64,000 nt of DNA from an uncultured Candidatus Binatia bacterium (GTDB lineage Bacteria; Desulfobacterota; Binatia; HRBIN30; CADEER01), in the NCBI GenBank assembly GCA_964475125.1, contig CAYYWP010000002.1, positions 2,036 through 66,035 on the forward strand, in the 5' to 3' direction. The notes under the pieces were generated by a model that saw only the letters and a list, made by a program, of their open reading frames with translations, was not told the DNA's origin and searched no databases. Of the stretch, positions 31,655 through 55,452 are shown one piece after another (position 1 is the stretch's first letter; the number at the start of each line of letters is the position of its first letter). The position numbers and the translations under genes were made by a program.

Positions 31655-32449
31655 ATGCCAGCCGAGCGCGCGACGACTCACACCTCCACGGGCCGCGGGC
31701 TCGCCGTGCTCGGCCTGCTGCTGGTGCTGGCCGGCGTCGTCGGCTACTTCGTCGTCGTCTTCCGCCTCGCGGCCTGGTGGCCGTCGGTGCGCAACGCGGC
31801 GCTGCCGAACTGGCTCCTCGTCATCGCCGGCGTGGCCCTCGCGGTCCTCGCGGTGCGCCGAGCGTCGAGCGGTCGCACGGCGAAAGTGCTGCTCGGCGTC
31901 GACCTGGCGCTCGCCGCGCTGTTCGCGGCGATCCTTTACGTCGTGCCCGCCGTCCCCGGCGCCAGCGGACCGGCGATCGGCGCGCCGGCACCAGACTTCG
32001 CGCTCCTCGACCAGAGCGGCAAGACCGTGCGGCTGGCCGACCTGCGGGGCGCGCCGGCGCTGCTCGTCTTCTATCGCGGCCACTGGTGACCCTTCTGCGT
32101 GTCGGAGCTGCAGGGTCTGCAGCTGAGCCTGGAGGAGTTCCGGCGCCGCGGTGTGCGCGTCGTCGGCATGGTCGTCGACCCGGTCGAGACCAACGCCCAG
32201 CTGGCACGCGATGCCGGGCTCGAGTTCACGATCCTCGCCGATCCCGACCTGCACACCATCGACGCGTACGGCCTGCGGCATCGTGAAGGACATGAGGGCC
32301 AGGACATCGCGCTCTCGGCCTCGGTGCTGCTCGACGCCGACGGCACCGTCCGCTGGAGCCACGTGACGCCCAACTTCCGCGTCCGTCCCCTCCCCGGCGA
32401 GATCCTCGCCGCGGTCGACGGGCTGCCGAAGGGGTCGCGAGCAGACTGA
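31655..32449 (+). CDS. membrane-anchored peroxiredoxin/Bcp-like (AhpC/TSA) selenoprotein. The in-frame TGA at 32087-32089 is read as selenocysteine in a UxxC motif.
   Basis: Two ORFs in the same frame (31655-32089 and 32099-32449) are separated only by a TGA. Joined they give three N-terminal TM helices, then APAPDFALLDQSGKTVRLADLRGAPALLVFYRGHW-U-PFCVSELQGL..GVRVVGMVVDPVETNAQLARDAGLEFTILADPDLHTIDAYGL...VLLDADGTVRW. This is colinear with Bcp/PrxQ (FYPKDDTPGCTTE), with UPFC occupying the position of the redox CxxC/peroxidatic Cys. A SECIS-like hairpin follows (next feature). Confidence 0.7.
32107..32123 (+). promoter_or_regulatory. bacterial SECIS-like stem-loop starting 17 nt downstream of the UGA
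   Basis: gcugcag-GGU-cugcagc forms a 7-bp perfect stem with a G/U-containing apical loop (GGUC if the closing pair opens). It resembles the fdhF SECIS apical hairpin (gcagGUCugc) and lies within the 16-37 nt window after the UGA. Confidence 0.55.
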
Positions 32450-32547
32450 GTGGTCGGAACGGCCCAGTCGCGGTATGACCGGGGCCTGCGCTAGGGCCAC
32501 CATGGTCAGCAGTGTGCGGGCGGTCGGGGTGGCCCTCGGTCAGCCTT

Positions 32548-32716
32548 GATCTGACAAAACCTCAACGCCGAGATGCAGCGTACGCAGAGGGCACCGTGGC
32601 GTCGTGCATGAGCTCGAGCGCTGCCCCATCGTCATCGTCAATAGGGCTCCGCGTTCTCTGCAGGCTCCGCGGCTCTGCGTTGAATCTCTGCTGTCCGATC
32701 AAGGGCAGCTCGCCGC
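32548..32716. mobile_element. MITE-like element, short copy (about 170 bp)
   Basis: Shares both ends and internal segments with 40681-41031: left end cttgatctgacaaaacctcaacgccgag...gcgtgcatgagctcgagcgct, right end ...ctctgcgttgaatctctgctgtccgatcaagg. It lacks the internal palindromic segment of copy 2. The termini are about 31-bp imperfect inverted repeats. Confidence 0.65.
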
Positions 32717-32775
32717 CCTTGGGCGCCTCGGTCGCGAACTCGAGACAACGCCAGATCCCGCACCACAGGCGCGGC

Positions 32776-33207
32776 TCATCGCCGACACGGATCGATCCAG
32801 CGAAGCCCGGGGAAGCGGGCGAAGTCGGCATCGGTCGAGTAGAGAATGTAGCCGCGCTCGACGGCGAGCGTTGCGAGGTGTGCATCCGTGGTCAGGTTGC
32901 CGGCGGTGCCCAATCGCTCGAGGTTGCGACGCAGCGCCGCGAAGTGCCCGTCGGCCGGGTGCGGAACGTGCACATGCGGCACTTGCAGCCAGCCCTCGAT
33001 GCGACCCAGCACATCGTGCACGGCAAGCGGTCGAAGAAGCACCCTTCTGTTGGTCGTGATGCGGATGAAGCCAAGCAGCGTGACCCACGCCAGGCCAACT
33101 CCCTCGGTACCGCTCAGGCAGGCGTCCCACCAGCGTCGCGCCCGCTCGTGCACCGGGGAATCGGAGTTATGCGCGTGAACGAGCACGCTGACGTCGGGCA
33201 GGATCAC
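32776..33207 (-). CDS. vapC: type II toxin VapC (PIN-domain ribonuclease)
   Basis: MILPDVSVLVHAHNSDSPVHERARRWW...TNRRV...NLTTDAHLATLAVERGYILYSTDADFARF is a PIN domain with its acidic residues. It lies immediately downstream of, and overlaps, an RHH antitoxin gene. Confidence 0.8.
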   Translation of the reverse strand: MILPDVSVLVHAHNSDSPVHERARRWWDACLSGTEGVGLAWVTLLGFIRITTNRRVLLRPLAVHDVLGRIEGWLQVPHVHVPHPADGHFAALRRNLERLGTAGNLTTDAHLATLAVERGYILYSTDADFARFPGLRWIDPCRR

Positions 33208-33469
33208 GACCCTTCCGCGCTGCAGGCTGAACGAAGGCCTCGGCTTCCAACTCGTCCGCCAGCTGATTGAGCTTGTCGAGATCGATTCCAGGCCGGAATC
33301 CGAAGGAGTGCGGCACGGTGCGCGGGGCGCGCACCTTCGGTTTGGCGGCCTCGCCCAGGCCGGCGCGGATTGCGCGGTTGACCGCTTCTTTGAACGAGAT
33401 GCCCATCTCGCGCGCCCGTCTGGCGAGCAGCCCCGCGAGGTCGTCGTCCAACGTGAGCGTGGTGCGCAT
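33167..33469 (-). CDS. vapB: type II antitoxin VapB (ribbon-helix-helix)
   Basis: MRTTLTLDDDLAGLLARRAREMGISFKEAVNRAIRAGL is the canonical VapB/RHH N-terminus. The 3' end overlaps the vapC start by 41 nt. Confidence 0.75.
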   Translation of the reverse strand: MRTTLTLDDDLAGLLARRAREMGISFKEAVNRAIRAGLGEAAKPKVRAPRTVPHSFGFRPGIDLDKLNQLADELEAEAFVQPAARKGRDPARRQRARSRA

Positions 33470-33648
33470 ATCCTGATGCCCTAGATGTCTGCAGATATGA
33501 TGTCAAGGCATCAGCACGTGATCACCGCGCCCGCTCCACTCGCAGCCGCCGAAGAGCGCGAACGACGGGATATCCACCTCGGCCGCTGGCGCGCCGGCCG
33601 GCTACAACTCCAGTCGCCCTGCGGGCTCCTTCCGTTTCCCCGGCCCGC

Positions 33649-35112
33649 TCATCTACCTTTCTCTTCTCCCCAGCTGTCTCCCATCTGGCGGTCGTTCCAC
33701 ATGTGGAGGTTGTAGAACTCCGGGCGCCGCCGGGTCCATTCTGCGACGAAGGCGCGCCACTCGGGATACTCGGCCGCCGGGATCGCCGGATCGAGGGCAT
33801 CGAGTAGTGGCCGGGACTGCGCCCACTCGAAGTACTGCCGTGTCGAGCTCACCGCCAGGGCGAGGATACCCAGGGCAACGATGACCACGAGCGGCGGAGC
33901 GATGCGCTCGCACGCCGTCCACACGGCGTGCACGGTGAGGCCGATGAACAGATAGAGCACGGGGACGAAGATGATGCCTCGCGCGCCGTTCAGACTGCCG
34001 ATCGTCAAGGCCTGTGTCAGGACGAACGGGATGAGCAGCAGGATCCACCACTGCCACGTTTGGGCGCGCCGGAACAGACCGAGAATCAAGCCAACCGCCA
34101 AGGCGATCGCGATGGGGCGGGACAAGGCGCCGGTCTTGATGCGCAGGTAGCGGTTCGACGGCTCGCGCCCGACCGACATGCGAGGCGCGAAGAGCTGATA
34201 CGTCTTGCGCCCGAAGGCGGCGAGCACGAGGCCGATCTGGTCCGGGATCGAACGCGCCGCGTTCTGCCCGCCGAGCAGGTACACGACGCGCGTGCGCTTC
34301 TGAAATCCATCCCAGTCGGCGACCACCGACGGGACCTGCGGCGCGAAGAGCGCACTCGTCACCAGCCCGATGACCATCATGCCGGCGAGCAGACGGCGCC
34401 GCGGTACCGCCGGTCGCCACAGGGCAGCACAACCGATGAGCAGCATCGCCGGCAGGATCGTCCGTCCGGCGAACGGGCCGTACAGCCCGAGCGCACACCA
34501 CACGCCAGTGCAGGCGAACGAACGCCAGGCGCCGGTTCGAATCGCCCGCTCCATGCACAGCGCCGCGGCGAGGAGAAAGACGCAGGCGTAGATATTCTCC
34601 CATCCGGTGCGGGAGAAATGCAGGTACCACGTTTCGGTGGCGAGCAGGGCGGCCGCCAACAACGCCGCGGGCGGCGCCACCGCCCGGCGCAAGAGCAGGA
34701 AGAAGAGCGCCAGGGCCGCGACGCTGAAGAGCGCCGCCGGCAGCCGTAATGCGACGAGCGACTCGCTGCCGCGCACGAACAGGGTGAGCAGATACACGCT
34801 CGCAGCCGGTTGGGGCTTCCAGTCGAGACCGAAGAAACCCGGGCCGCGTCCGTTGAGGATCTGGTAGGCGTTGACGAGATTGTCGCACTCGTCGTGGATC
34901 ACGATCGGCGGGACGCGATCGAGAGCGTACAAGCGCACGGCCAGTGCGGCGCCCATTACCGCCACCAAGCCGATCCATTCCCAGCCCTGCACGGGCGTTG
35001 GGGCTCGCGCGGTCTCCGCGCCACCGGCGCCTCGGGCGGCATCGAAGGGAGGCCGTCCCCATCGACAGCGCCGCGGAGGCGTCGGATCAGGTGGGTTCGT
35101 CATGATTGACAC
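33649..35112 (-). CDS. ArnT/PMT-like (GT39/GT83) polyprenyl-phosphate-sugar-dependent glycosyltransferase, polytopic membrane protein
   Basis: About 12 predicted TM helices. N-terminal loop motif VPPIVIHDECDNLVNAYQILNG and the overall hydrophobic pattern are typical of the ArnT/PMT family. The N-terminus and start codon are uncertain. Confidence 0.6.
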   Translation of the reverse strand: MSIMTNPPDPTPPRRCRWGRPPFDAARGAGGAETARAPTPVQGWEWIGLVAVMGAALAVRLYALDRVPPIVIHDECDNLVNAYQILNGRGPGFFGLDWKPQPAASVYLLTLFVRGSESLVALRLPAALFSVAALALFFLLLRRAVAPPAALLAAALLATETWYLHFSRTGWENIYACVFLLAAALCMERAIRTGAWRSFACTGVWCALGLYGPFAGRTILPAMLLIGCAALWRPAVPRRRLLAGMMVIGLVTSALFAPQVPSVVADWDGFQKRTRVVYLLGGQNAARSIPDQIGLVLAAFGRKTYQLFAPRMSVGREPSNRYLRIKTGALSRPIAIALAVGLILGLFRRAQTWQWWILLLIPFVLTQALTIGSLNGARGIIFVPVLYLFIGLTVHAVWTACERIAPPLVVIVALGILALAVSSTRQYFEWAQSRPLLDALDPAIPAAEYPEWRAFVAEWTRRRPEFYNLHMWNDRQMGDSWGEEKGR

Positions 35113-35225
35113 GCATTATCGGCTGGCGAGACGTGGTCCCGTATTTGACCTCATGCGCGCACCAGACGAAGCGGCTGCCTATCGGCACGCTGGTGACCAA
35201 TCCGGTCACGCGCCACCTGAGTCCC
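35101..35225 (+). repeat. about 125-bp duplicated internal fragment of the LLM oxidoreductase gene at 43760-44803 (gene remnant)
   Basis: gattgacacgcattatcggctggcgagacgtggtcccgtatttgacctcatgcgcgcaccagacgaagcggctgcctatcggcacgctggtgaccaatccggtcacgcgccacc is near-identical to 43850-43975, which encodes MIDTHIGWREVVPYLTLCAHQTKRLRIGTLVTNPVTRH. It lies in the gap between the ArnT-like gene and the cytochrome c gene. Confidence 0.8.
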
Positions 35226-35764
35226 TACTCGTTGCGGAACTCGAGCGCCTCGGGCCCGGGAATCACCCCGGCGGCGACCAGTCCCGCCACCACGCGCCGG
35301 CGCAGCGCGATTACCTGCTCGAGCTTGTGCCGGCGCAGGGCGCCGACCTCGGCCGCGGTGTAGGGCGCGAAGTCCAACGGGAGCTGCGCCTTCCCGTAGG
35401 TCTGCAGCAGCCAGTTGAGCAGCCGCGCCAGCTGCTCGTCGCTCAGGTGCGCCTGCGCGACATTGGGCACCTGCACCAGGTAGGCGCGGCCCTCGGCGGT
35501 GTGTGCGAAGTAGCCGACGCGATCCTTGAGGATGGGGATCTCGTGCGCCGAATAGCCGAGGTGGCCGTGGCACCCCTGGCAGTGGCGCGCATAGTCCTCG
35601 ACCGCGCCCTGGATGCGCGGCACGGGAGCGCCGCTGCGCTCGATCGGCAGGTCGGGAACGGGCGCGGCGGCATCACCCGCCTGCGCCGCAACGGCACCGG
35701 CGTAACCGAGCAGGGCCGCGGCCAGGCGCACCACCCGCGCACACGCGGCGCCCGCCCGCCGCAC
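35225..35764 (-). CDS. mono-haem c-type cytochrome (putative electron acceptor for the amine dehydrogenase)
   Basis: Signal peptide, then a single CQGCHG haem-binding motif. 179 aa. It is the last gene in the mau-like operon. Confidence 0.7.
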   Translation of the reverse strand: MRRAGAACARVVRLAAALLGYAGAVAAQAGDAAAPVPDLPIERSGAPVPRIQGAVEDYARHCQGCHGHLGYSAHEIPILKDRVGYFAHTAEGRAYLVQVPNVAQAHLSDEQLARLLNWLLQTYGKAQLPLDFAPYTAAEVGALRRHKLEQVIALRRRVVAGLVAAGVIPGPEALEFRNE

Positions 35765-35777
35765 CCGCCAACCCTCC

Positions 35778-36329
35778 TCAGACCTCGCCGATCAGCGCGC
35801 CGGATGAGCAGTGGTACACCATGCTCGGGGCGCCCAAGCACCAGATGATGTCGTTGTTGAGCTGCGGCCGGTAGGTCGGCATCTCGCCGGCGGTGCCGAG
35901 GCAGAAGCAGCGGCCGCACGAATCCTTGCCGCAGCAGTCGCGATAGGCGAGCAGGTAGAGCTTGCCGTCGTCCGGGTTGAGACAGCTGCCGATCCAGGAG
36001 GTCGGCGAGGGCACCGAGCCCGGCGGGCAGGTGGCCGGACCGCCGCCGCAGCAGGAGCACAAGTAGCCATCGGCGGCGCAGTAGCGCCAGTAGTTGCACG
36101 CTCGCGGGTCGGTGGTCTGCGCCTTGACCGCCGCGGCCCACTCGCGCGCGGCCTGGGCCCCGCTGGGCTCCGCCGCATGCGCCTTGCGGCTGACCGGCAG
36201 CACCGGCAGCACGGCCGCGCCGGCCAGCGTGGCCCCGAGTACGGACAGGAAGTTGCGCCGCGACACGCGCTGCGCGGCGCGCCGGCTCACCCGTTCGAAC
36301 ACCTTGTCCAGCAACTCCAGCTGCACCAT
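35778..36329 (-). CDS. mauA: methylamine (or aromatic amine) dehydrogenase light chain, TTQ-bearing subunit
   Basis: Tat signal SRRNFLSVLGATLAGAAV. Mature region ACNYWRYCAADGYLCSCCGGGPATCPPGSVPSPTSWIGSCLNPDDGKLYLLAYRDCCGKDSCGRCFCLGT...YRPQLNNDIIWCLGAPSMVYHCSSG is colinear with Paracoccus MauA, including the 12 Cys and the two Trp. Confidence 0.9.
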   Translation of the reverse strand: MVQLELLDKVFERVSRRAAQRVSRRNFLSVLGATLAGAAVLPVLPVSRKAHAAEPSGAQAAREWAAAVKAQTTDPRACNYWRYCAADGYLCSCCGGGPATCPPGSVPSPTSWIGSCLNPDDGKLYLLAYRDCCGKDSCGRCFCLGTAGEMPTYRPQLNNDIIWCLGAPSMVYHCSSGALIGEV

Positions 36330-36366
36330 CGTGTCCTCCCGACACCCAGGACGCGGCGCGGCGGCC

Positions 36367-37005
36367 TCACACCGCAGCCTTGTCGGCCGGCGCGCTCTCC
36401 TGCGGCCCGCCGTGCCGGCGCGCGCGCAGGTACGCCTGAATACTGCCGTAACCCGTTTCCTTGGCGATCGCCAAGCTCTCCAGATGCTCGCGGCTGTTCA
36501 CCAGCCCTTTGGCGCGGATCACGCCATCCTCGTCGATCAGGACCGCATAGGGCAGCTTGCCGACACGGAAGGCCATGCCCACCTGCGGCGAGTTGACGTA
36601 GGCCATGCCCTGCAAGCCATGTTGGGCGATCATCGCGCGCTGCTCGGCCAGGTCGCCATCGCCGACCAGCACCACGTCCAGCCGCTCGCCCTGGGCGAAG
36701 GAGCGGGCGATCGGCAGCAGCTTCTTGCACACCGGACAGGTCGGCGCCACGAACAGCAACAGGCGGCTGCGCCCGCTCTCGTTCGGCCCGCCCAGCCGCA
36801 GCGCCCGCGCGTCGATCGTGCTGATGCGCAGATCGGGCGCCATCTCGCCGACCTCGGGGCCGTGATCGGTGGTCAGCGCCCCCATCGGCGCCACGCGCTC
36901 GTGCAGAATGCCGACCTGCCGCACCATGCCGAACAGGATGGCGGCCAGCGCGACCACCACGACCCACAGCACGAGGTTGGAGACCACCAGGGCTTCGTAA
37001 GACAT
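36367..37005 (-). CDS. mauD: methylamine utilisation protein MauD (thioredoxin-like, CPVC)
   Basis: N-terminal TM helix, then LLLFVAPTCPVCKKLLPIARSF...AYVNSPQVGMAFRVGKLPYAVLIDEDGVIRAKGL. Start set at the internal ATG (MSYEALVV); the longer ORF overlaps mauE. Confidence 0.85.
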   Translation of the reverse strand: MSYEALVVSNLVLWVVVVALAAILFGMVRQVGILHERVAPMGALTTDHGPEVGEMAPDLRISTIDARALRLGGPNESGRSRLLLFVAPTCPVCKKLLPIARSFAQGERLDVVLVGDGDLAEQRAMIAQHGLQGMAYVNSPQVGMAFRVGKLPYAVLIDEDGVIRAKGLVNSREHLESLAIAKETGYGSIQAYLRARRHGGPQESAPADKAAV

Positions 37006-37598
37006 CACGGCGTGTTCCAGTCGCGCACGAGCTGGGCCTGCGCGGATTGGCCGGGGCGCATCGCGGCCAGCTCTTCCAGGGTCGGCGGCGGCCTGCGTGT
37101 CACATAGCCGGTGGCCAGATAGACAAAGAACAGGCTGACCGCGCCCGCGGCGATCGTCACCCAGTCGGTGCCTGCGAGCGCGCGCGTCCCCGCCGGCAGC
37201 GTGCAGAGGAGCGCCAGCGCCATGAGCAGCGCATTGCGCAACACCAGCCACCAGGACAGCGTCTGCTTGAGCGCAGAAGCGAAGCAGCCGCAGTCGATAT
37301 CGGACCGCCCGCGCGCGAGGTTGATGCCGATGGCGGCCGCGAACGCCGCCAGCAGCAGCAGCAGGCACGCCCCAGCGGGCGTGCGCAGCGGACCCGCCAA
37401 CACCGCCAACGCGAGCGCCAGCTCCAGCGGCGGCAGCGCCCAGCTCGCCGGCGCGACCAGGGCAGCTGGCAGCAGGCGGAAGTTGCGCACCACGCCAGGC
37501 AGCTCGGTCCAGGCCGCCATCTTGGTCACGGCCGCGCCGGCGAAGACCAGAAACAGCGCCAGCGCCGCGGTGTGCTGCAGGGCGGGGTCGATCATGCT
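37005..37598 (-). CDS. mauE: methylamine utilisation protein MauE (integral membrane)
   Basis: Four or five TM helices (ALALFLVFAGAAVTKM, ALPPLELALALAVLAG, LLLLLAAFAAAIGINLARG with DCGCF). Typical MauE size and position between mauB and mauD. Start at the internal ATG (MIDPALQ). Confidence 0.75.
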   Translation of the reverse strand, partial: SMIDPALQHTAALALFLVFAGAAVTKMAAWTELPGVVRNFRLLPAALVAPASWALPPLELALALAVLAGPLRTPAGACLLLLLAAFAAAIGINLARGRSDIDCGCFASALKQTLSWWLVLRNALLMALALLCTLPAGTRALAGTDWVTIAAGAVSLFFVYLATGYVTRRPPPTLEELAAMRPGQSAQAQLVRDWNTP

Positions 37599-37632
37599 CG
37601 CGTCCGCGCGTAGAGACAGGAGCGCCGGCAGC

Positions 37633-38814
37633 TCACATGCCGTCCACGTAGAGCAGGTAGGGCGAGATGCCCAGCGGCTCGATCGCACCCCGGGCTTTGC
37701 CCGTCTTCACGTCGTACACCACCAGGCTGGGCTTCTCGGTGAGCGTATAGAGCTGGGTCGCCTCGAGGTCCGGGCTCACCGCCAGCGACACCGCGTGATC
37801 CTTGAGCGTAATGCGGCTCACCCGTTTCTTCGCCGCGACGTCGAACACCCACACCTCATCGCCAGCCTGTTTGTGCGTCCAGCGCGCGCCCTCGTGCATC
37901 AGCACGAACAGCCGCTGGCCGGCGGAGTGGAACCCCGACATCTGCCAGCCGCCTGGCCGCCAGTGCTCGGCCTTGTCCTCGGCGGTGAGCAAGGACCACT
38001 GGGGCAGCATCTTCGCTTTCTCCTGCGACAGATCCACCGGGTAGACGTTGCCCTCGTAGCTGATGAAGTAGACGGTTTGGCGTTGCTTGTCGAAGGCCGA
38101 ATGCTCGAAGACCGGATCGTTCTCGGCGTCGAAGAACGGGCCGTCGCGCACCACCGCGGCCTTGAGGGTGGCGTCGAAGCTCACCGTGGCCAGCGTGCCG
38201 TCCGAGCATACCGAGGAGAAGCGGTTGCCCGCGGAGGGGAAGATCAGGCCGCAGCCGGGGATCTCGATCTCGCCCTTGTAGCGCTTCTCCTTCGCGTCGA
38301 TCACGCTCACCGTGGTCGCCGGCGCCAGGTTGTAGGACAGCAGGTAGCGCCCGTCGGGCGTGATGTCGGCGTTCGGCTTCTTGGTTCCGACCAGGAAGCG
38401 GCCCTTGGGCATGGTCACTTCCGCGGTGATATTCAGCGTCTGTGGATCGAAGAACGTGACCAGATCGGTGCGATCGCCGCGATAGCCCTTCGACCAGTAG
38501 GTGTCGAACGTGAACAGCTGGGAGTGATCGGGGGCGAGCGCGAAATTGGCACAGTAGCCGGCGTTCATCATGCCCACAACGTCGATCGTGTCGGCGTCGA
38601 CCACCCAGACCTTGCTCGACACCAGATACGGCAACACCGGTTCGAGCACGTAGACGCGGTGCGGCCCGGCCGGCGGGAGCTTGGCGACCTGATGGACTTC
38701 GGCGCCCTGCAGCTTGGCGGTATCGGGCAGGTCGTCCTTGGCGACGCAGCGCGACAGCGGAAGCGATGCGGCCAGTGCCGCGGACAGCGCCGCGCAGAGC
38801 GATGCGACCTTCAT
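37633..38814 (-). CDS. mauB: methylamine (amine) dehydrogenase heavy chain, 7-bladed beta-propeller
   Basis: Signal peptide MKVASLCAALSAALAASLP. Then ...RVYVLEPVLPYLVSSKVWVVDADT...GYCANFALAPDHSQLF...TVYFISYEGNVYPVDL is colinear with MauB heavy chains. Confidence 0.85.
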   Translation of the reverse strand: MKVASLCAALSAALAASLPLSRCVAKDDLPDTAKLQGAEVHQVAKLPPAGPHRVYVLEPVLPYLVSSKVWVVDADTIDVVGMMNAGYCANFALAPDHSQLFTFDTYWSKGYRGDRTDLVTFFDPQTLNITAEVTMPKGRFLVGTKKPNADITPDGRYLLSYNLAPATTVSVIDAKEKRYKGEIEIPGCGLIFPSAGNRFSSVCSDGTLATVSFDATLKAAVVRDGPFFDAENDPVFEHSAFDKQRQTVYFISYEGNVYPVDLSQEKAKMLPQWSLLTAEDKAEHWRPGGWQMSGFHSAGQRLFVLMHEGARWTHKQAGDEVWVFDVAAKKRVSRITLKDHAVSLAVSPDLEATQLYTLTEKPSLVVYDVKTGKARGAIEPLGISPYLLYVDGM

Positions 38815-38994
38815 GGCGTCCCTCCCGGGAGGCGTCCGACTGCGGCCGGACTCAACCGGCGGGCGGAATACTCGGGGCCGCTGTCGCGATTGTCAACTGC
38901 CAGGCGCCGCGGTCGAAGCCCCGGACACCAGCAGCTCCGCCCCACCGGCCGGTTTGCCGCCTCATCGCCGCGCGGTTGGGACGACGGTCAGCGA

Positions 38995-39765
38995 TCAATG
39001 GCCGGCGCTGAGTCCGCCGTCGACGGCCAGTATCGCGCCCGTCGTGTAGCTCGCGAAGGGTGCCGCCAGGTACAGCACGGCACCCGCGCACTCGTCCACG
39101 GTGCCGATGCGTCCCATGGGAACGCTGTCGCTCACGTGGTCGATCAGGGCGGCGCCGCCGATCGCCTCGCCGTCCCCGCGTAGCATTGGCGTGTCGATCC
39201 AGCCCGGACAGAGGGCGTTGACGCGGACGCCCTCCTTCGCCAGCGCCAGGGAAAGCATACGGGTCATGTGGACGACGCCCCCCTCGGTTGCCGCCTGCAC
39301 GGCGGCGCCCGGCCGCAGCCCGATGACGCCGGCGACGGAGGCGACGTTGATCACCACGCCCTTGCTCGCCTTCAGCGCCGGCAGGCAGCGCTGCGTGGTG
39401 AAGAACACGGCCTTGAGGTTCAGGTCAGTCATCTGCTGCCAGTACTCGTCGCTGACCTGGTCGAGCGGCGCGTCGGCGCCGCGGTCGACATTGTTCACCA
39501 GGATATCCAGGCCGCCCATCGCCGCGAGCGCAGCGGCCACGACTTCCTGGCGCTGAGGGGCGGATGCCACGTCCCCAGGCGCGGCGATCAGGCGCTGGCC
39601 GCCGCCGAGTCGCGCGATCGCCGCGCGCACGCCCTCGGCGCTGCGCCCGTTGACCGCCACGCTCGCGCCGAGGGCGTGGAACGCCTCCGCGGCGCTCAGG
39701 CCGATGCCCGTCGTCCCGCAGGTGACCAGCACCCGCTTGGCGGTGAAATCCAATTGGAACTTCAT
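38995..39765 (-). CDS. SDR-family protein with degenerate catalytic residues (probable pseudo-enzyme paralog)
   Basis: Rossmann motif VLVTCGTTGIGLS is present. NNAG is replaced by NNVDRG. The catalytic YxxxK position reads AAVQAATEGG, with neither Tyr nor Lys. The neighbouring paralog retains YAISK. Confidence 0.75.
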   Translation of the reverse strand: MKFQLDFTAKRVLVTCGTTGIGLSAAEAFHALGASVAVNGRSAEGVRAAIARLGGGQRLIAAPGDVASAPQRQEVVAAALAAMGGLDILVNNVDRGADAPLDQVSDEYWQQMTDLNLKAVFFTTQRCLPALKASKGVVINVASVAGVIGLRPGAAVQAATEGGVVHMTRMLSLALAKEGVRVNALCPGWIDTPMLRGDGEAIGGAALIDHVSDSVPMGRIGTVDECAGAVLYLAAPFASYTTGAILAVDGGLSAGH

Positions 39766-39819
39766 GCGTGCACCGTCTCCCGTGCGCCCGGACTGTTCAC
39801 TGTGAACCGCGCGGGTGGG

Positions 39820-40608
39820 TTACTGAGGCGGAGCGGCGATGTTGGAGCCGCCCCAGCTCGAGTTGGCGAGGCAGCCGCCGTCGTTGACGAGAACCGAGCC
39901 GGTCACGTAGCTCGCGTCCTCCGATGCGGCATACACGATCGCCGATGCCCCCTCGCCGAGCGTGCCGATGCGGGCCATCGGCACCGAGCGCCTGACGAAG
40001 TCGTAAATCTGGCCGCCCGTGGCCGCATTCTCAGCCTGTATCAGCGGCGTGTCGATGTAGCCCGGACACACCGCGTTGATGCGGATGCCATCGCCGACGA
40101 GCTCGAGCGCCAGCGCTTTCGTCATGCTCACCAGCGCGCCCTTGCTGATGGCGTACACGAAGCTGTCCGTCGGCCCGGCGCAGAGCCCGGCCACCGACGA
40201 CACCATGACGACGTTGCCCTTCGAACGCCGCAGCGCCGGCAGCGCGAACTTGGTGCAAAACATCGGCGCGCGCAGGTTGACGGTCATGATGTCATCCCAG
40301 TGCTCCTCGGTGACATCCATGACGAAGGCGAGCGGGTTGACGCCGGCGTTGTTCACCAGCACGTCGAGACCGCCGAGGCCCTGGATGGCGGCGTCGACGA
40401 CCGACCAGCACCCGGCGACCGTGCCGAGGTCGCCAGTTGCCGCCACGAGGCGCTGGCCGCCCATGTCGCGGATCGCCTGATCCACTCCGCTCGCCTTGCG
40501 ACCGTTGATGGCGACGCTCGCACCCGCTGCGAGGAACATCTCCGCGGCCGCACGTCCGATGCCCATCGTGCTGCCGGTGACCAGAACCTTCTTGCCGGTG
40601 AAATCCAT
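39820..40608 (-). CDS. SDR-family NAD(P)-dependent oxidoreductase
   Basis: VLVTGSTMGIGRAAA, NNAGVN, SSVAGLCAG...YAISKGAL, PGYIDTP. All canonical SDR motifs are present. Confidence 0.85.
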   Translation of the reverse strand: MDFTGKKVLVTGSTMGIGRAAAEMFLAAGASVAINGRKASGVDQAIRDMGGQRLVAATGDLGTVAGCWSVVDAAIQGLGGLDVLVNNAGVNPLAFVMDVTEEHWDDIMTVNLRAPMFCTKFALPALRRSKGNVVMVSSVAGLCAGPTDSFVYAISKGALVSMTKALALELVGDGIRINAVCPGYIDTPLIQAENAATGGQIYDFVRRSVPMARIGTLGEGASAIVYAASEDASYVTGSVLVNDGGCLANSSWGGSNIAAPPQ

Positions 40609-40680
40609 CGCACGCTCCCCCGTGCCTAGACGCCGACCGCTGCCGAAAATCGCCCGACCGCCGGAACGCTAGCCTTGCTT

Positions 40681-41031
40681 GATCTGAACAAAAAACCTCA
40701 ACGCAGAGCCTCAGAGTACAAAGAGGAAACAGAGGCAGCGTGCATGAGTTCGAGCGCTAGTGTCCTGTATCCGAAATTCGCTGCCTATCTCGGCGGCCCT
40801 CAGCGCCCCTGGCGGCGTTGGCCTCCTCGGAATATAGCCAGATATTCCTGCGTCGGCCGCCTTGCCAAGGCCGCCGATGCCTCGCCGATATATGCAACGA
40901 ATTTCGGATACAGGACACTAGCTGATCGTCATCGTCAACTGGGTTTGGGGTTCACTCTCGAGACCCTCGTGCTCCGCGTTCCTCCGCGGCCTCCGCGCCT
41001 CTGCGCTGAGTTTCTTTTTTCCGATCAAGCC
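40681..41031. mobile_element. MITE-like element, long copy (about 350 bp) with a internal 23-bp perfect inverted repeat
   Basis: Termini cttgatctgaacaaaaaacctcaacgcagag / ctctgcgctgagtttcttttttccgatcaag form a about 31-bp imperfect TIR (about 26/31 matches). The internal tagtgtcctgtatccgaaattcg ... cgaatttcggatacaggacacta is a 23-bp perfect inverted repeat around a about 115-nt loop. The flanking internal blocks (gcgtgcatgagttcgagcgct, atcgtcatcgtcaa) are shared with 32548-32716. Confidence 0.7.
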
Positions 41032-41152
41032 TAGCACGACCGGCCCCGCTCTCAAGCGCGCGGTTGTCGATTCCGACCAGTCCCTGTCTTGCTGGCCCGC
41101 CGGCCATCCGTCACCATGGCGCCGTCGATTCAACCGAGGGAAGGAGACGTTC

Positions 41153-41593
41153 ATGACCGTGCAGCCGTCGACCATCGAGGTGGAGGTGGAACGCTGGTAC
41201 CGGGATGCCTTCGAGAAGCCCATCGTGGGGAAGCAGCAGCCGTTCGTCGACGCGGTCGCAGCGGTGTACGCGTCGCCGATGCGCTATCTCGAACTCGACG
41301 GCGAGATCATGCTCGGCGACGCAGCGGCCGCGAAGGCGTTCATCCAGGGCTTCTCGGACTGGCTGGACGCGGCGCCGGGTTGGACGGCAAGGGTGGCGCG
41401 CATCCAGGTGCGGGCGCTGAACGCCAGCGCCGCGGCGCTGGTGGTGGATTGGCAGCTGCACGACGCCCAGGGCAAGTCGCTGGCAGGGGGTGACCCGGTG
41501 CAGTACTTCTACATGGTGTCGAAGCACGCAGGCGGCTGGAAGGTCGTCGGCGAGGCGACGGTCATGGCGGAAACCCGGATCGACTTCGCGTGA
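41153..41593 (+). CDS. NTF2-like / SnoaL-like fold protein
   Basis: 146-aa ORF with the alpha+beta cone pattern of the NTF2-like superfamily (WYRDAFEK...YFYMVSKHAGGWKVVGEATVM). The GC3 bias is like that of neighbouring genes. Confidence 0.45.
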   Translation: MTVQPSTIEVEVERWYRDAFEKPIVGKQQPFVDAVAAVYASPMRYLELDGEIMLGDAAAAKAFIQGFSDWLDAAPGWTARVARIQVRALNASAAALVVDWQLHDAQGKSLAGGDPVQYFYMVSKHAGGWKVVGEATVMAETRIDFA

Positions 41594-43391: not shown

Positions 43392-43759
43392 GTGTTCCGG
43401 GATCTAGTATCAAGCGAATAGGACCGGCGACTCCCGAGCATTGCCGCGTTTCTCCCCTCCGCGCGATGTGAGCTTGACCTGCTCCGGAGCCGGGCTGACC
43501 CTGATTCTCGAGGTGGGGCTCGGTGTCAAGGAAGCCGTCCGAGCCGCCCACGAGATTTCGTGGCCACGAAAAGCCGAGACCTCGCGGCGGGCGCTGGGCT
43601 CGGCTTGGGTGCGATTGCGATGTCCTTTCGCGGCTACCCGGTTTGGCGGGGAATGTGCTTTAGTCATTCCTGAACGGGGTGCAGCATCCGCCGAAGGGTG
43701 CTTGGCTCCGCGCCGACAAAGTCAGCCCCGCAAGATCACAACCGGAAGGGAGGATGCAC

Positions 43760-44803
43760 ATGCAGTTCAGCCTCATGATCGAAACCAATCCACAGGCTCC
43801 GGCGCTCGCGAAGCTGGCCGAAGAGAACGGCTTCAACTGTCTCTTCATGATCGACACGCATATCGGTTGGCGGGAGGTGGTCCCGTATTTGACCTTGTGC
43901 GCGCACCAGACGAAGCGGCTGCGCATCGGCACGCTGGTGACCAATCCGGTCACGCGCCACCCGACCGTGGTCGCGAGCTACTTCGCCACGCTGCAGGAGA
44001 TCTCCAACGGGCGCATGGTCTGTGGCATCGCCAAGGGCGACTCCGCCACGCGCGTCATGGGCGAGCGGCAGGCGACCATGAAGGAGTTCCGCGAGGGGGT
44101 CGACCTGATCAAGCGGATGATGAACGGCGAGGAGATCCTGTACACGCCGAAACATCCCGACCGTTCGGCCTGGCTCAAGCAGGCCGGCGGCAAGCCGCTG
44201 AAGATCAAGTTCCACTGGTACAAGCCGCCCGCCAAGGTGCCGGTGTACATCGGTGGCTACGGCCCCAAGACCTTGCAGTTCGCCGGCGAGGTGGCGGACG
44301 CCGTGGTGGTGCAGGCGCCGAATCCCGATTCGCTGCGCTGGTCGCTCGGTCATGCGCACGCCGGCGCACGCCGCGTCGGTCGCGACCCGGCGACGTTGAA
44401 GACGGTGGTGTCGGGGCCGATCGTCCTCAACGACGACCTCAAACAGGCGCTGCGCGATGAGCGCTGGTTCGTGCAGGCCGTGTGGAACCACTCGGCGCAC
44501 CTGCTCGAGCACTACCGGCGCGAGGAGCTGCCCGAGTGCATGACCCTCGGGCTGCCGCAGGATTTCCACAGCGATTACACCGAGCACATCATCCGCGATG
44601 CCGAGGAGCTCTCGCAGGTGCCCGAGCGCGCCGTCGACCTGCTCACGGTCAGCGGGCCCGCCAGCCGCTGCATCGAGCGGCTCGAACAGCTCAAGGCCGG
44701 GGGCGCCAAGGAGTTCATCCACTACGCGGTGGCGAGACCGATGGCGGAGCTCGAGGCCACGATCCGCCGCATCGGCAAGGAGATCATTCCGCATTTCAGC
44801 TGA
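43760..44803 (+). CDS. LLM-class flavin/F420-dependent oxidoreductase, paralog of 967-2010
   Basis: MQFSLMIETNPQAPALAKLAEENGFNCLFMIDTHIGWREVVPYLTLCAHQTKRLRIGTLVTNPVTRHPTVVAS.... A GGAAGGGAGG RBS sits 7 nt upstream of ATG 43760. A 125-bp internal fragment is duplicated at 35101-35225. Confidence 0.85.
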   Translation: MQFSLMIETNPQAPALAKLAEENGFNCLFMIDTHIGWREVVPYLTLCAHQTKRLRIGTLVTNPVTRHPTVVASYFATLQEISNGRMVCGIAKGDSATRVMGERQATMKEFREGVDLIKRMMNGEEILYTPKHPDRSAWLKQAGGKPLKIKFHWYKPPAKVPVYIGGYGPKTLQFAGEVADAVVVQAPNPDSLRWSLGHAHAGARRVGRDPATLKTVVSGPIVLNDDLKQALRDERWFVQAVWNHSAHLLEHYRREELPECMTLGLPQDFHSDYTEHIIRDAEELSQVPERAVDLLTVSGPASRCIERLEQLKAGGAKEFIHYAVARPMAELEATIRRIGKEIIPHFS

Positions 44804-49012: not shown

Positions 49013-49061
49013 GCGAACGCTTGACAGGATCACGTGCGCAGACGGTGAAAGGAGTCCAGTC

Positions 49062-51443
49062 GTGAAATACATCGGGCAACCCATTCCGGCCTTGAATAAC
49101 CGTATCCTCGCCGCCGGCCAGGCGACCTTCGTTGCCGATGTCCCGCTGGTCAATACCGCTCATCTGACCATGCTCCGCAGCGCCCATGCCCATGCGCGGA
49201 TTCGGTCGATCGACACCAGTCGGGCCCGCCAGCTCCCCGGCGTCCTGCTCGTGCTGACGGGAGCGGACCTGCGCGCGGTGATGCCTCCCACGCCCTTGGC
49301 GGCGGATCCAGCCGTGCTCGGCGGCAACACGGTCACCGTGTATCCCCTGGCGGTCGATCGGGTGCGCTACGTCGGCGAGCCGGTCGCCGCCGTGGTCGCG
49401 GACGACAAGTTCGCCGCCTACGCCGCCTTGGAGCTGATCGATGTCGACTACGAGCCCTTGCCGGTGGTCACCGACGCGGTCAAGGCGTTGGAGCCGGGCA
49501 GCCCGCTGGTCGAGCCGGACTGGGGCAGTAACATCCTGCTGCACAAGTCCTTCACCCGCGGCGACTTCGCCAGTGCGCTGCAGCGCGCCGATGGCGTGTT
49601 GCGAGGCACGGTCAAGGCGCACCGCTATGGGGCGGTGCCGATCGAGCCGCGGGCCTACGCGGCCTCCTATCATCCCTATCTCGACGAGCTGACGGTGTGG
49701 GCGTCGACGCAGATGCCACACTCGGTACGCGGCTACATCGCGATCGTGTTGGGCATGAGCGAGACCAGCGTGCGCGTGATCCAGCCGCATGTCGGCGGCA
49801 GCTTCGGTCTCAAGGTGCCGCCGTTCCCGGAGGAAATCCTGGTGGCGTACTTCAGCCGGGCGTTGCGGCGGCCGGTGCGGTGGATCGAAGAGCGCGGCGA
49901 GCATCTCGCGGTGTCCTCGCATTCGCGCGAGGAAACGCTGTCCTACACCGCCGGCTACCGCAGCGACGGGACCGTCATCGCGCTGGACGTGCGCGTGGTG
50001 GCCGACGTCGGCGCCCCGTCGGCGGTCGGCGGCTGGCCGATGTCGTTCGTCTCCGCGTTCGTCATCCCCGGCCCGTACAAGATCGACGACTGCAACGTGG
50101 AGCTCTATTCGGTGGTGACCAACAAGGCCCCGTGGACCCCCTATCGCACCTTCGGCAAGGACGCGGCGAATTACGTCATGGACCGGATCATGGACAAGGT
50201 GGCGCGGGCGTCGGGCCGTGACCGCGCCGAGGTTCGTCCGCGCAACTTCGTCCCGCCCGATGCGTTTCCGTTCCGCCAGGTCTCCGGCGCGGTGCTCGAC
50301 AGCGGGAACTACGGCGCGGTGTGGGATCGCCTGCTCGAGGCGATCGATTACCGCGGCTTCGCCAAGCGGCAACAAGAAGCCAGGCAGAGCGGGCGATACC
50401 TGGGGATCGGCATCACCTTCGAGCTCACGCCGGAAGGCGGTGCGATCCCGCACTCCCGGTTGATCCAGGGCTACGACGGAACGACCGTGCGGGTGAGCCC
50501 CGAGGGCCGCGTCACGGTGCTCACCGGCGTGACGTCGCCCGGCTCCGGGAACGAGACCGGCATCGCGCAGATCGTCGCCGACGAGTTGGGCGTCGACCTC
50601 GCCGAGGTGAAGGTCATCCAGGGCGATACGCAGTCGTGCCCCTTCGGGTTGGGGAACGGCAGCTCGCGCAGCGTGATGATGGGCGGCGGCGCCGGCGCGC
50701 TGGCCGCCCAAGACCTGCGCGAAAAACTCCTCACCGTGGCGGGAAAGATGTTGGAGGTGGCGCCGCAGGACTTGGACGGCGAAGGCGGGGTCATTCAGGT
50801 GCGAGGCGCGCCACAGCGCAAGGTCACCATCGCCCAGGTGGCGGCGGAGATTTACCGCCACACGTACGGGCCGGCGGCGGAGGGGGTCGAGCCGGGCCTC
50901 GAGGTGACGCGTTACAGCCGCATCGGCAATCTCCACCATCAGCCGGAGAAGCACGATGGCCATTTCAGCATGTATCCCACCTGGCCGAACGGGGCCTGCG
51001 GGGTCATCGTCGAGGTCGATCGCGACACCGGACTCGTCAAGCTGCTGCGCTGCGTGTTCGTGCACGACTGCGGGACGGTCATCAACCCATTGCTGGTCGA
51101 GGCCAACGTGCACGGATCCTTGGCGCAGGCATTCGGTGGCGCGCTGTACGAACGGCACGTCTATGACGAGGCCGGGCAGTACCAGACCGCCACGTTGATG
51201 GACTATACGCTACCGACTGCCGTCGAGCTTCCGAGCTTTGAGATGGCGCACCTCTGCACTCCCTCGCCGTTTACCGGCCTCGGCACCAAGGGCGCCGGGG
51301 AGTGCGGCATGAGCGCCCCGATCACCGCCCTGATCGGCGCGGTCGAGAACGCGCTGGCCGACTTCAACGTCGTCCTCGACGAGACCCCCGTCACGCCCGA
51401 CCGCGTCTGGAAGGCGATCCAGGACGGGATGGCGAAGGCGTAA
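49062..51443 (+). CDS. xanthine dehydrogenase / CoxL-family molybdopterin-binding large subunit
   Basis: GTG start 7 nt after a GAAAGGAG RBS. a/b-hammerhead N-terminus IGQPIPALNNRILAAGQATFVADVPLVNTAHLTMLRSAHAHARIRSIDTSRARQLPGVLLVLTGADL. Mo-binding domains (GGSFGLK, GTKGAGECG). 793 aa. No CoxS or CoxM genes are adjacent. Confidence 0.85.
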   Translation: MKYIGQPIPALNNRILAAGQATFVADVPLVNTAHLTMLRSAHAHARIRSIDTSRARQLPGVLLVLTGADLRAVMPPTPLAADPAVLGGNTVTVYPLAVDRVRYVGEPVAAVVADDKFAAYAALELIDVDYEPLPVVTDAVKALEPGSPLVEPDWGSNILLHKSFTRGDFASALQRADGVLRGTVKAHRYGAVPIEPRAYAASYHPYLDELTVWASTQMPHSVRGYIAIVLGMSETSVRVIQPHVGGSFGLKVPPFPEEILVAYFSRALRRPVRWIEERGEHLAVSSHSREETLSYTAGYRSDGTVIALDVRVVADVGAPSAVGGWPMSFVSAFVIPGPYKIDDCNVELYSVVTNKAPWTPYRTFGKDAANYVMDRIMDKVARASGRDRAEVRPRNFVPPDAFPFRQVSGAVLDSGNYGAVWDRLLEAIDYRGFAKRQQEARQSGRYLGIGITFELTPEGGAIPHSRLIQGYDGTTVRVSPEGRVTVLTGVTSPGSGNETGIAQIVADELGVDLAEVKVIQGDTQSCPFGLGNGSSRSVMMGGGAGALAAQDLREKLLTVAGKMLEVAPQDLDGEGGVIQVRGAPQRKVTIAQVAAEIYRHTYGPAAEGVEPGLEVTRYSRIGNLHHQPEKHDGHFSMYPTWPNGACGVIVEVDRDTGLVKLLRCVFVHDCGTVINPLLVEANVHGSLAQAFGGALYERHVYDEAGQYQTATLMDYTLPTAVELPSFEMAHLCTPSPFTGLGTKGAGECGMSAPITALIGAVENALADFNVVLDETPVTPDRVWKAIQDGMAKA

Positions 51444-51500
51444 CGACCATATCCGGACGGTACGGACGGGCTCGCCCCAGCGCGCGCCGGGCACGGCACC

Positions 51501-53912: not shown

Positions 53913-53990
53913 AGAGAGGAACCGATGGCAGACGGAGCGCAAGCCAGGGCCCGTCGTTGGCCGGGAAGCCGGGGGTTGTGAGGAGACAAC

Positions 53991-55418
53991 GTGACAGGAC
54001 ATGCTGAGACTGGTCGGCGCGACCCGAAATCATCGGGTGCCTCGCCGCCATTGGAACAGGCGCTGATTCGGTTCATTCAGGAAATGCGCCTCGATCGTCT
54101 CGGCCAGGGGGTTCGGGCGGCGGTCAGTTGCCTCCTGCGCGATCAGCTGGCGGTGCAAATCGGCAGCGCGAGCTTGCCGTGGTCCCAACGAGTGCTGGCC
54201 TACGCGAGAGCGCGGCAGCGTCCGGGCCGCAGCCGCGTGGTGGCGAGCGGCGTGCAGATGAGCGCCGCCGATGCGGCGTTCGTCAATGCGATCTACGGGC
54301 ACGGCTTCGAATATGACGACGCGCATCGCGCCAGCGCGAGCCATCCGGGTCCCTGCGTGGTTGCCACGGCCTTGGCCCTCGGCGAAGAGCTGAACGCCTC
54401 GCTCGACGAGGTCATCGCGGCGATCGTCGCTGGCTACGAGGTCTACACCCGCATCGGCTGCCTGGCGGCTCCGGACCTCCTCAAGCGCGGCTTCCACCCG
54501 CACGCGATCCTGTCCAGTTTCGGCGCCGCCGCCGCGACGGCGAAACTGCGGCGACTCGACGCGGAGACGACGCTGCATACGCTGGCGATCGCGGTCAGTC
54601 ACGCGTCCGGGGTGACGGAGTACAGCTCGACTGGCGGGTCGGTGAAGCGGGTCCATTCCGGCATGGGCGTGCGCAGTGGGATGATCGCTGCCGACATGGC
54701 GCAATTCGGCATCACCGGGCCGCGGGCGTTCCTCAGCGGGGCCAAGGGCTTCTTTCGCACCTTTCTGCAGCGCACGGCCGGAGCCGATCCCGAGCGGTGG
54801 TTCGGTGCGGAGCACGGCTTCGAGGTCGAGAAGATCTGGCTCAAGCCGTATTGCTGTTGCGGCTGCATCCACGCCTATCTCGATGCGATCCGCCCGTTTA
54901 CCGCCCGGCTCGCCGAGATCGCGGAAGTGTCGGTGCGGATCCAGCCCTCCGCCAACGTCATCGTCGGCACCGCCAACGCCAATGCCTATGAACCGCAAAC
55001 CATCGAGAACGTGCAGTTCAGCTTGCCGATCCAGATGGCGTTCGCGTTGCTGGGCTACGGCAACGGCATGCGCGTCCATCTCGATTATCTGGACGGAAAA
55101 CTGGATATGGATACCGTGACCGCGACGGCGCGTCGGATTCGTCTCGTCGAGGCACCCGAGCTGGACGAGCAGTACGCCGGCAAGTTCGTCGCCGACGTGA
55201 CCGTGCACTTTGGCAACCGGCAATCGGAGCACGTCTTCGTCGAGGATCCGGTCGGGACCGCCGAAAAGCCGATGCCGGAGTCAGACCAGGACGCGAAGTT
55301 CATGGAATTGACGGCGAACGTCCTGGGTGGTGAGCGCGCCAGTGCGCTGCTGAGCGCCCTACGGGCGCTCGACCCCCGCATGGCGGTGACGGAGCTCACC
55401 GCCATGTGCGCGCTGTGA
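53991..55418 (+). CDS. MmgE/PrpD family protein (2-methylcitrate dehydratase / cis-aconitate decarboxylase superfamily)
   Basis: GTG start after a GAGGAG RBS. ...SGVQMSAADAAFVNAIYGHGFEYDDAH..SHPGPCVVATALALGEE...ILSSFGAAAATAKL is typical of MmgE/PrpD. Confidence 0.8.
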   Translation: MTGHAETGRRDPKSSGASPPLEQALIRFIQEMRLDRLGQGVRAAVSCLLRDQLAVQIGSASLPWSQRVLAYARARQRPGRSRVVASGVQMSAADAAFVNAIYGHGFEYDDAHRASASHPGPCVVATALALGEELNASLDEVIAAIVAGYEVYTRIGCLAAPDLLKRGFHPHAILSSFGAAAATAKLRRLDAETTLHTLAIAVSHASGVTEYSSTGGSVKRVHSGMGVRSGMIAADMAQFGITGPRAFLSGAKGFFRTFLQRTAGADPERWFGAEHGFEVEKIWLKPYCCCGCIHAYLDAIRPFTARLAEIAEVSVRIQPSANVIVGTANANAYEPQTIENVQFSLPIQMAFALLGYGNGMRVHLDYLDGKLDMDTVTATARRIRLVEAPELDEQYAGKFVADVTVHFGNRQSEHVFVEDPVGTAEKPMPESDQDAKFMELTANVLGGERASALLSALRALDPRMAVTELTAMCAL

Positions 55419-55452
55419 CGCGACGCCGGACGAGGACGACAGGAGAGAACGA

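Follow-up and report, generated by a model that had tools for sequence, protein, structure and literature searches.

The feature under study occupies positions 40672-41031 of the window, by which we mean the whole 64-kb stretch of DNA that was analyzed. Its neighbors, in the DNA of an uncultured Binatia-like soil bacterium, are two divergent genes, one of the SDR type (start at 40608) and one NTF2-like (start at 41153), and it is referred to here as copy B. A shorter relative, copy A, is located at 32543-32705 on the plus strand (163 bp), in the gap where the 3' ends of two convergent genes, one AhpC/TSA-like and one with a PIN domain, face each other. The initial annotation had placed both copies in intergenic DNA, and the third-position GC coding signal and Pfam agreed with this position. 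It had also stated that no transposase ORF was present; indeed, none of the Pfam-scanned ORFs of the window contained a transposase domain. Two ORFs run across the copy B region, one of 119 aa on the plus strand (40675-41034) and one of 53 aa on the minus strand (40757-40918), and both exemplify the spurious small ORFs that the elements had been said to create. The 119-aa ORF had no homologue among 5.8 billion proteins.

From the four ends of copies A and B, we derived a degenerate terminus pattern, CTTGATCKGA-N(2-12)-YTCARCGCMGAG. This pattern matched four times in the 64-kb window, compared to no match in 100 dinucleotide-preserving shuffles. The matches (32545-32572 and 40678-40708 on the plus strand, 32673-32703 and 40999-41029 on the minus strand) fall one at each end of the two copies, which confirmed that these have common termini in inverted orientation. 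Copy B, on the plus strand, measures 360 bp in total, with an own part of 199 bp (40672-40759 plus 40921-41031) and outer arms of 52 nt that are 75% complementary. At its left end it carries a 4-nt extra GCTT (GCCTTGCTTGATC), and at its right end it reads GATCAAGCC in place of GATCAAGGC. A CTAG at the left border (40669-40672) is partnered by a CTAG at the right border (41031-41034), and the duplication at the left corresponds either to the central TA (40670-40671) or to all four bases. In the right arm, TRF detected a subterminal array of 8-9-nt repeats on the plus strand (CTCCGCGGC, 3.8 copies; 40972-41005), which is mirrored in the left arm by NNCAGAG repeats at about 40699-40737. Copy A has its own inverted-repeat arms, which match those of copy B, and is flanked by TCAG on the left and GCAG on the right, that is, by a direct, non-palindromic CA(G) repeat. 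Its right end had been put at 32716, about 10 nt too far; the refined end is 32705.

A second element resides inside copy B. This inner MITE is 159 bp long (40760-40918), its inverted repeats start with GTGTCCTGTATCCGAAATTCG, and it is bordered by TA at 40758-40759 and 40919-40920, in each case within a CTAG. The arms are 38 to 40 nt in length and 93% complementary, with 87 nt between them. An internal 23-bp palindrome had been described here; it is present, but the true arms, of 40 nt, are longer. The block 40760-40918, together with one TA, is absent from all eight other aligned members of the outer family (164 to 193 bp). Removing it with one TA regains the family length exactly, so that the junction reads GAGCGC-TA-GCTGATCG in copy B versus GAGCGC-TG-(C/A)CCCATCG in the family. 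The same register is found in the other copies of the window, GAGCGC-TG-CCCCATCG in copy A and GAGCGC-TG-ACCCATCG in copy C (described below). Since the other family copies act as the empty site, copy B arose by insertion, rather than copy A by deletion. The initial annotation had taken the 170-bp copy for a deletion derivative, a view that has to be abandoned given the absence of the block from every other aligned member. It was right that the extra block is missing from the short copy, but a stretch of about 31 nt in the family core, kept in copies B and C, is missing from copy A as well. Judged by this anatomy, copy B appears to be one MITE that took up a second, unrelated MITE at a TA/CTAG in its core. 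The inner MITE was a singleton, with no relative among the plasmids, proteins, viral contigs or related loci searched; in the related loci neither exact patterns nor nhmmer gave a match, and the inner inverted repeat found none in the viral contigs. It is the anatomy of the inner MITE that suggests its mobility.

Using a profile built from the family, we found a third outer copy in the window, which the initial annotation had overlooked. Copy C, at 60228-60456 on the minus strand, was recovered by nhmmer with E values of 3e-13 and 2e-12, and the three window copies together ranged from 7e-40 to 3e-13. Its core is inverted relative to those of copies A and B, and it takes up all of the DNA that separates a CoA-transferase gene from an AMP-binding gene. 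The intact end, TTAG followed by CGTTGATCGGAC, overlaps the TAG stop codon (60226-60228) of the CoA-transferase gene. At the opposite end, the terminal 13 to 17 nt are missing, and the copy runs up to the ATG (60457) of the AMP-binding gene. We rejected the idea that the MITE end was the source of this start codon, because an ortholog without the element has the same ATG-(P/S)-E-L-N start. Copy C is also a host to another repeat, a perfect 61-bp hairpin at 60299-60359 (25-nt arms, 100% complementary), which belongs to a REP-like family (GCTCAGGGTGAGCGG) that is present again at 58885-59016. Two of the three copies in these 64 kb therefore host a nested element, which is a MITE for copy B and a REP-like hairpin for copy C. 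Over their full length, copies A, B, and C are 56 to 66% identical, with blocks at 84 to 97%. This low mutual identity and the damaged ends of two of the copies indicate that they are old, and they are probably immobile; the suggestion that they mark recent insertions did not hold.

The family is not restricted to the window. We scanned 185,579 species genomes with the pattern and accepted a match solely if (Y)TAG preceded it and the octamer array came after it. Six of the 19 matches were accepted: L001 and L015 in one MAG, L002, L003, and L016 in a MAG labelled Deltaproteobacteria, and L018 in a third MAG. Chance matches in coding DNA accounted for the remaining 13, about the number estimated beforehand from the information content of the pattern. 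Three more copies (L021, L027, and L029) came from soil-metagenome contigs, so that nine copies, complete or partial, are known beyond the window, from three MAGs and as many soil-metagenome contigs. Several copies occur per genome, with three in the 64-kb window, three contigs of MAG bins.329, and two of cluster3_bin.132, and the flanking DNA differs for every copy in the MAG and metagenome contigs. L003 and L016, from one MAG, are 95% identical, which indicates that the family was recently active there. In a blastn search of 72,556 plasmids, copy B had no match. The single match of the outer terminus in viral contigs was a coding-sequence coincidence and was discarded. The terminus sequence retrieved only unrelated primer matches from the full-text literature, and in the title and abstract of the one paper on Binatia and transposable elements nothing appears to concern this family. 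The outer family is known so far solely from uncultured high-GC bacteria, namely, Binatia and similar MAGs, and soil metagenomes. It is previously undescribed, whereas the kind of element is itself well known; the lineage is little studied.

Full copies of the outer family are 173 to 199 bp long and are built to a common plan. The terminus is a 13- to 15-nt terminal inverted repeat, GCCTTGATCKGAC, with an A-rich spacer of 6 to 9 nt next to it. Each arm continues with YTCAACGCAGAG and then about three further 8-9-nt CGCRGAG repeats; TRF found this periodicity of 8 to 9 nt, with about four copies, in either arm of other family members as well. Between the arms lies an asymmetric core of about 60 nt with the motif ATC..CAT.G...AT.GGGTT. 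In the eight aligned copies, the terminal 13 to 15 nt and the TCAACGCAGAG block were invariant or nearly so, and the core motif was kept across copies that are otherwise 45 to 65% identical. The octamer arrays may serve as extra transposase-binding sites. The conservation of the core exceeds the needs of a purely parasitic MITE, and to that extent it counts against a plain-MITE reading. A DnaA box or IHF site in the core was also considered, but a perfect TTATCCACA was found in L021 alone and was treated as chance.

We compared the flanks of nine end-pairs, from eight outer-family copies and the inner element. CTAG was present on both sides of L002, L021, copy B, and the inner element, and TTAG on both sides of L015 and L029, so that identical YTAR tetranucleotides bordered six of the nine. 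The remaining three differed at one outer base: L003 (CTAG left, CTAC right), L016 (TTAG left, CTAG right), and copy A, with the flanks given above. These three fit a 2-bp duplication too. TA stood on either side of the seven canonical full copies (six from other genomes plus copy B), and CA on either side of copy A. Such sites are rare: the 64-kb window has 12 CTAG sites (0.19 per kb), 3 TTAG sites (0.05 per kb), and 3 CTAA sites. Repeat elements are bordered by 7 of the 18 YTAR sites, and the outer and inner elements of copy B are bracketed by 4 of the 12 CTAG sites. The initial annotation had proposed a target-site duplication around cctt/aagg. A duplication is present, but cctt/aagg belongs to the inverted repeat; the real duplication is the TA or YTAR outside it.

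Because CTAG is palindromic, a 2-bp and a 4-bp duplication are ambiguous, and the 2-bp model (TA, with element ends G...C) and the 4-bp model (YTAR) each leave about three single-base exceptions. IS630/Tc1 elements duplicate TA and, as stated in a passage of PMC2170065 citing Tenzen & Ohtsubo (1991), IS630 favors TA within CTAG; in this the outer family is similar, with CTAG at most of its copies. Occasional non-TA insertions are reported for ISY100 (PMC2170065), and the CA/CA flanks of copy A resemble these. In the case of IS5, a 4-bp YTAR target (CTAG, TTAG, CTAA) is duplicated (PMC5009759). On these sequences, IS630-type mobilization (TA within CTAG) and IS5-type mobilization (4-bp YTAR) would fit the flanks equally well. 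As palindromes, TA and CTAG might themselves have been parts of the inverted repeat, but three observations speak against this. Non-palindromic flanks are direct repeats, TTAG/TTAG at L015 and L029 and CAG/CAG at copy A; at copy C, the TA lies within a stop codon; and the register of the nested site dictates that one TA must belong to the host element. The flanking TA(G) doubles as the stop codon of an adjacent ORF at copy C, L003, L016, and L021, which makes four copies or more, with L002 as a possible fifth.

We then compared the window with related loci. The nearest named homologue of the CoA-transferase, at 85% identity, belongs to a Candidatus Binatia MAG. Contig L040 of this MAG is syntenic with positions 49061-63242 of the window (14 kb) at 79 to 85% nucleotide identity. 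Where the window has copy C, the spacer in L040, L041, and L042 measures 87 bp and gives no family match, compared to a spacer of 228 bp in the window, all of which is element. The CoA-transferase gene ends in TAG in the window and in TAA at that codon in L040; as part of this stop codon, the flanking TA of copy C is host sequence. At the SDR locus, L036 and L037 (76 to 78% protein identity) lack the element in the DNA upstream of the SDR operon, and in both a CTAG is located at -64 from the SDR ATG, the same distance as in the window. The gene beyond the site of copy B differs in the relatives, so that one flank is comparable. For the closest metagenome relatives of the SDR and NTF2-like genes (P0002 and P0122), the spacer is 288 bp, versus 544 bp in the window, a difference in length that is suggestive but not decisive. 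For the outer family, the comparison gave no base-perfect empty site, as spacers are unalignable at 80% genome identity and copy C is short of one end. The initial annotation had mentioned a conserved regulatory leader as an alternative; the absence of the element at the orthologous SDR and CoA-transferase loci speaks against it.

Other small elements are present as well. A 193-bp insert at 58882-59074 of the window is one of them, and an element with a CATGAAGAG array was seen in L043. A single CTAG separates the two CoA-transferase genes at one point in L040, whereas the window there has CTAG, 189 bp, and CTAG, which marks an independent insertion by a further small element.

Together, these results identify the 350-bp feature as a non-coding MITE remnant of about 200 bp that hosts a second, unrelated MITE of 159 bp. 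Outer-family members of 163 to 199 bp and the inner element are of MITE size and have no coding capacity. Terminal inverted repeats, target-site duplication, several unrelated sites per genome, and presence/absence polymorphism were all found. The initial description of a MITE-like, non-autonomous element with terminal inverted repeats was therefore upheld by the terminus pattern, the arms, the duplications, and the copies at unrelated sites. Direct support extends to the inverted repeats, the duplications, the unrelated insertion sites in several genomes, the absence at an orthologous site, the nesting, and the non-coding nature. We consider it likely that the stretch 40672-41031 represents a non-autonomous DNA transposon (MITE), now decayed and about 200 bp in size, with a nested MITE, moved in trans by a DDE enzyme. 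We infer a transposase, of an IS630-like or IS5-like family, and with it a possible binding role of the subterminal repeats and any effect on neighboring genes.

According to our model, a DDE cut-and-paste transposase with its gene elsewhere in the genome would act in trans to move the outer and inner elements. The enzyme would make staggered cuts at a TA-centered target (CTAG, TTAG or CTAA), which would result in the duplication of 2 or 4 bp. The 159-bp inner MITE would have been inserted later, at a TA/CTAG within the outer core. At 68% GC the target tetranucleotides are very rare and concentrated at stop codons and in spacers. Copies would consequently end up in intergenic positions, and often precisely at a stop codon that the duplication would restore. 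YTAR sites being largely stop codons at this GC content, such insertions would be harmless, and the copies may be tolerated because TA/CTAG targeting funnels them to stop codons and spacers. We searched the window and about 200 kb of related loci for an autonomous element bounded by the same ends and found none. L018 was considered as such an element and dismissed, since its facing ends, 3.3 kb apart, enclose an SDR gene and two acyl-CoA dehydrogenase genes and not a transposase.

In a different route of mobilization, an HUH enzyme (RAYT/TnpA-Y1) would transfer the element in single-stranded form, and the element would be REPIN-like or IS200/IS605-like. The (Y)TAG at the ends would then be a cleavage tetranucleotide instead of a duplication, and the element would insert 3' of a host CTAG and bring its own CTAG at the other end. 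GTAG is the tetranucleotide next to REP hairpins, and one end of L003 shows it. Like REP/REPIN sequences mobilized by RAYT, the family consists of short palindromic intergenic repeats with a conserved tetranucleotide next to the hairpin. A small subterminal hairpin is possible in each arm (GCGTTGA...TCAACGC in copy C and CCTTGA...TCAACG elsewhere), other REP-like hairpins exist in the window, and, CTAG being palindromic, filled and empty sites would look alike under either model. However, the non-palindromic flanks covary as direct repeats, twice independently as TTAG/TTAG and as CAG/CAG in copy A, which would be unexpected if one side were host target and the other an element-encoded site; the flanks act as direct duplications, whereas REPINs are defined by having none and by a conserved tetranucleotide that forms part of an inverted REP doublet. 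Moreover, the ends are long, symmetrical inverted repeats of at least 50 nt with tandem octamers, not two different subterminal hairpins, the elements are 2 to 4 times longer than REPINs, and no HUH or RAYT gene was seen in the window. On this evidence, we regard the HUH route as quite improbable. Even less probable is a simple segmental duplication or gene-conversion tract in this genome, with the palindromes due to chance. The initial annotation had connected this reading with there being only two copies that lack target-site duplications. The window does contain just three copies, and these are diverged, but the same architecture recurs in unrelated places, in no fewer than three MAGs and three metagenome contigs, homology stops exactly at the inverted repeats, and the flanks are the rare CTAG and TTAG. 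The copies and flanks elsewhere have already effectively refuted it.

The palindromic arms raised a further alternative, in which the repeats would not be mobile elements but genes for a structured non-coding RNA, or else hairpins with a cis-regulatory or terminator role, under selection for their fold or for a protein-binding core. Both copies can fold into long hairpins (z = -2.65 for copy A and z = -11.8 for copy B, the latter mostly due to the inner arms), the asymmetric core motif is kept in distant copies, and a terminator would make sense between the convergent genes that flank copy A. Nevertheless, Rfam gave 0 matches over the whole window at the gathering score. A lenient Rfam search of 32300-41300 gave chance-level matches only, the one on the element being MIR8788, with 21.9 bits versus a gathering score of 124 (E = 5). 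In an alignment of eight sequences, only 1 of 33 consensus pairs showed a compensatory change, the covariation term was +2.51, and variable positions broke pairs; the spacers of the two arms were not complementary. The lack of an Rfam match and the near absence of compensatory changes argue against a structured RNA, and the scarcity of such changes indicates that it is the sequence of the arms that is conserved, which is what protein-binding ends would be expected to show. Copies are found between convergent, divergent, and tandem genes in no fixed orientation, the element is absent at orthologous loci, and promoter and terminator scans around copies A and B gave no signal. An RNA would also leave the rare TA/CTAG flanks unexplained. 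We judge this alternative very unlikely, and the DDE-mobilized MITE remains our preferred reading.

Bacterial MITEs derived from IS630/Tc1-mariner elements include Nezha in cyanobacteria, the Correia elements in Neisseria, and RUP in Streptococcus. The elements described here resemble IS630/Tc1-derived MITEs in being 100 to 400 bp long, non-coding, and intergenic, with terminal inverted repeats and a duplicated TA. Unlike for those MITEs, no IS630-type transposase with these ends was found. In our judgement, the outer-family sequence is probably unrelated to Nezha, Correia, and RUP. To our knowledge, four 8-9-nt subterminal repeats per arm are not standard at IS630 ends. The eukaryotic PIF/Harbinger-Tourist elements are relatives of the IS5 family. 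Similarity to the IS5 group lies in the identical YTAR tetranucleotides at six of the nine end-pairs, with TTAG/TTAG occurring twice. The single outer-base mismatch in three end-pairs (L003, L016, and copy A) is unlike the IS5 group, and no IS5-type transposase was found. IS5-group ends begin with GG or GA, whereas outer-family ends begin with CC. Nested MITEs are seen among the plant Stowaway and Tourist elements; in bacteria, as far as we know, they have rarely been described. As in plants, one MITE here served as the target for another, and the nesting can be recognized from the empty site that the remaining copies of the host element supply.

We also entertained three bolder readings, which taken jointly we hold to be unlikely. 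A guild of unrelated small TIR families, all targeting the rare CTAG/YTAR, might inhabit Binatia-type genomes; its members may be the outer and inner elements, the 58882-59074 insert, and the array element of L043, and copies would in this way come to lie exactly on stop codons and restore them. The octamer arrays and the asymmetric core could point to an undescribed transposase clade with multiple subterminal binding sites, or to a core function recruited by the host. Finally, the facing ends of L018, with TA flanks around a three-gene SDR/acyl-CoA-dehydrogenase operon, could represent a cargo-carrying version that moves metabolic genes.

The practical value of the family lies in annotation; mechanistically it is unremarkable, and knowledge of transposition is unchanged. 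Gene callers produce false ORFs on these elements, as they did with the 119-aa ORF of copy B, and such repeats may break metagenome assemblies. A family HMM could flag both kinds of error in the poorly studied Binatia and related MAGs. In addition, a nested copy contains an internal empty site and so reveals the order of insertion.

Between two CTAG sites in the window lies a 193-bp block (a 189-bp insert plus the flanking CTAG; 58882-59074). At the corresponding position, the syntenic contig of a Candidatus Binatia MAG, L040, carries a single CTAG (9958-9961, ATCAT-CTAG-AGCGG). The two loci are a clean pair of filled and empty sites, and the inserted sequence is a small element other than the outer MITE family. 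Inside the block we found two REP-like hairpins of the type GCTCAGGGTGAGCGG / GTCGAAGGGTGAGCGG. Members of this hairpin family, which start with TGCTGAA and end with TTCAGCA, occur at 58885-59016 and 60299-60359; one of them, whose 25-nt stem is perfect, sits inside MITE copy C (60228-60456). L040 also differs from the window in gene content: a MaoC-like hydratase gene (L040 6903-7462), which has the HpcH-like lyase gene on one side and the acyl-CoA dehydrogenase gene on the other, is absent from the window at 56343-56387.

The locus L043 contains another CTAG-flanked element, about 270 bp long (1625-1905), whose ends CCTCACTGCCGCCCAATTTG / CAAATTGGGCAACAGTGAT are inverted and which carries arrays of 9-mers (CATGAAGAG) in mirrored arrangement. 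Its architecture is like that of the outer family, but the sequences are unrelated. Upstream of the SDR gene in the relatives L036 (5933-5955) and L037 (same region), TGTCGGGTCGACGAAAT follows the CTAG. When compared with the terminus of the inner 159-bp MITE nested in copy B, CTAG-TGTCCTGTATCCGAAAT, 13 of 21 positions are alike. TGTCGGGTCGACGAAAT may be a remnant end, or the resemblance may be due to chance.

In the MAG contig L018, two truncated outer-family ends (2561-2595 and 5851-5918), each adjoined by TA, face each other 3.3 kb apart, and one SDR gene and two acyl-CoA dehydrogenase genes lie between them. Either the two ends are remnants that arose independently of each other, or together they mark a derivative that carries cargo.

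Upstream of the short MITE copy (32543-32705), an AhpC/TSA-like gene (31955-32449) is apparently split into two ORFs. Both share one frame, and the in-frame TGA (32087-32089) falls within a redox motif, FYRGHW-[TGA]-PFC (UxxC), with a hairpin, AGCTGCAG-GGT-CTGCAGCT, about 17 nt 3' of it. This gene is probably not a pseudogene; it would encode a thiol peroxidase/redoxin that contains selenocysteine, and the hairpin would be a SECIS-like stem-loop.

Other repeats are present in the window. A 253-nt stretch is duplicated with 97% identity (2118-2370 and 16810-17062); at each site it takes in the start of an ORF (967-2163 and 15817-16965, respectively) together with the region upstream of it. In the spacer 3' of the gene at 33649-35112, a 104-nt fragment (35117-35220) matches part of the luciferase-like monooxygenase gene (43679-44803) with 92% identity (43861-43964), and a further pair links 1781-1859 with 43896-43974. 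Long low-complexity coding repeats (9700-10470 and 12090-13850) adjoin an RHS-repeat protein gene. They comprise a Thr/Pro-rich tract with a period of 18 nt and Gly-rich tracts of GGC, and are located within very large ORFs and in the DNA around them.
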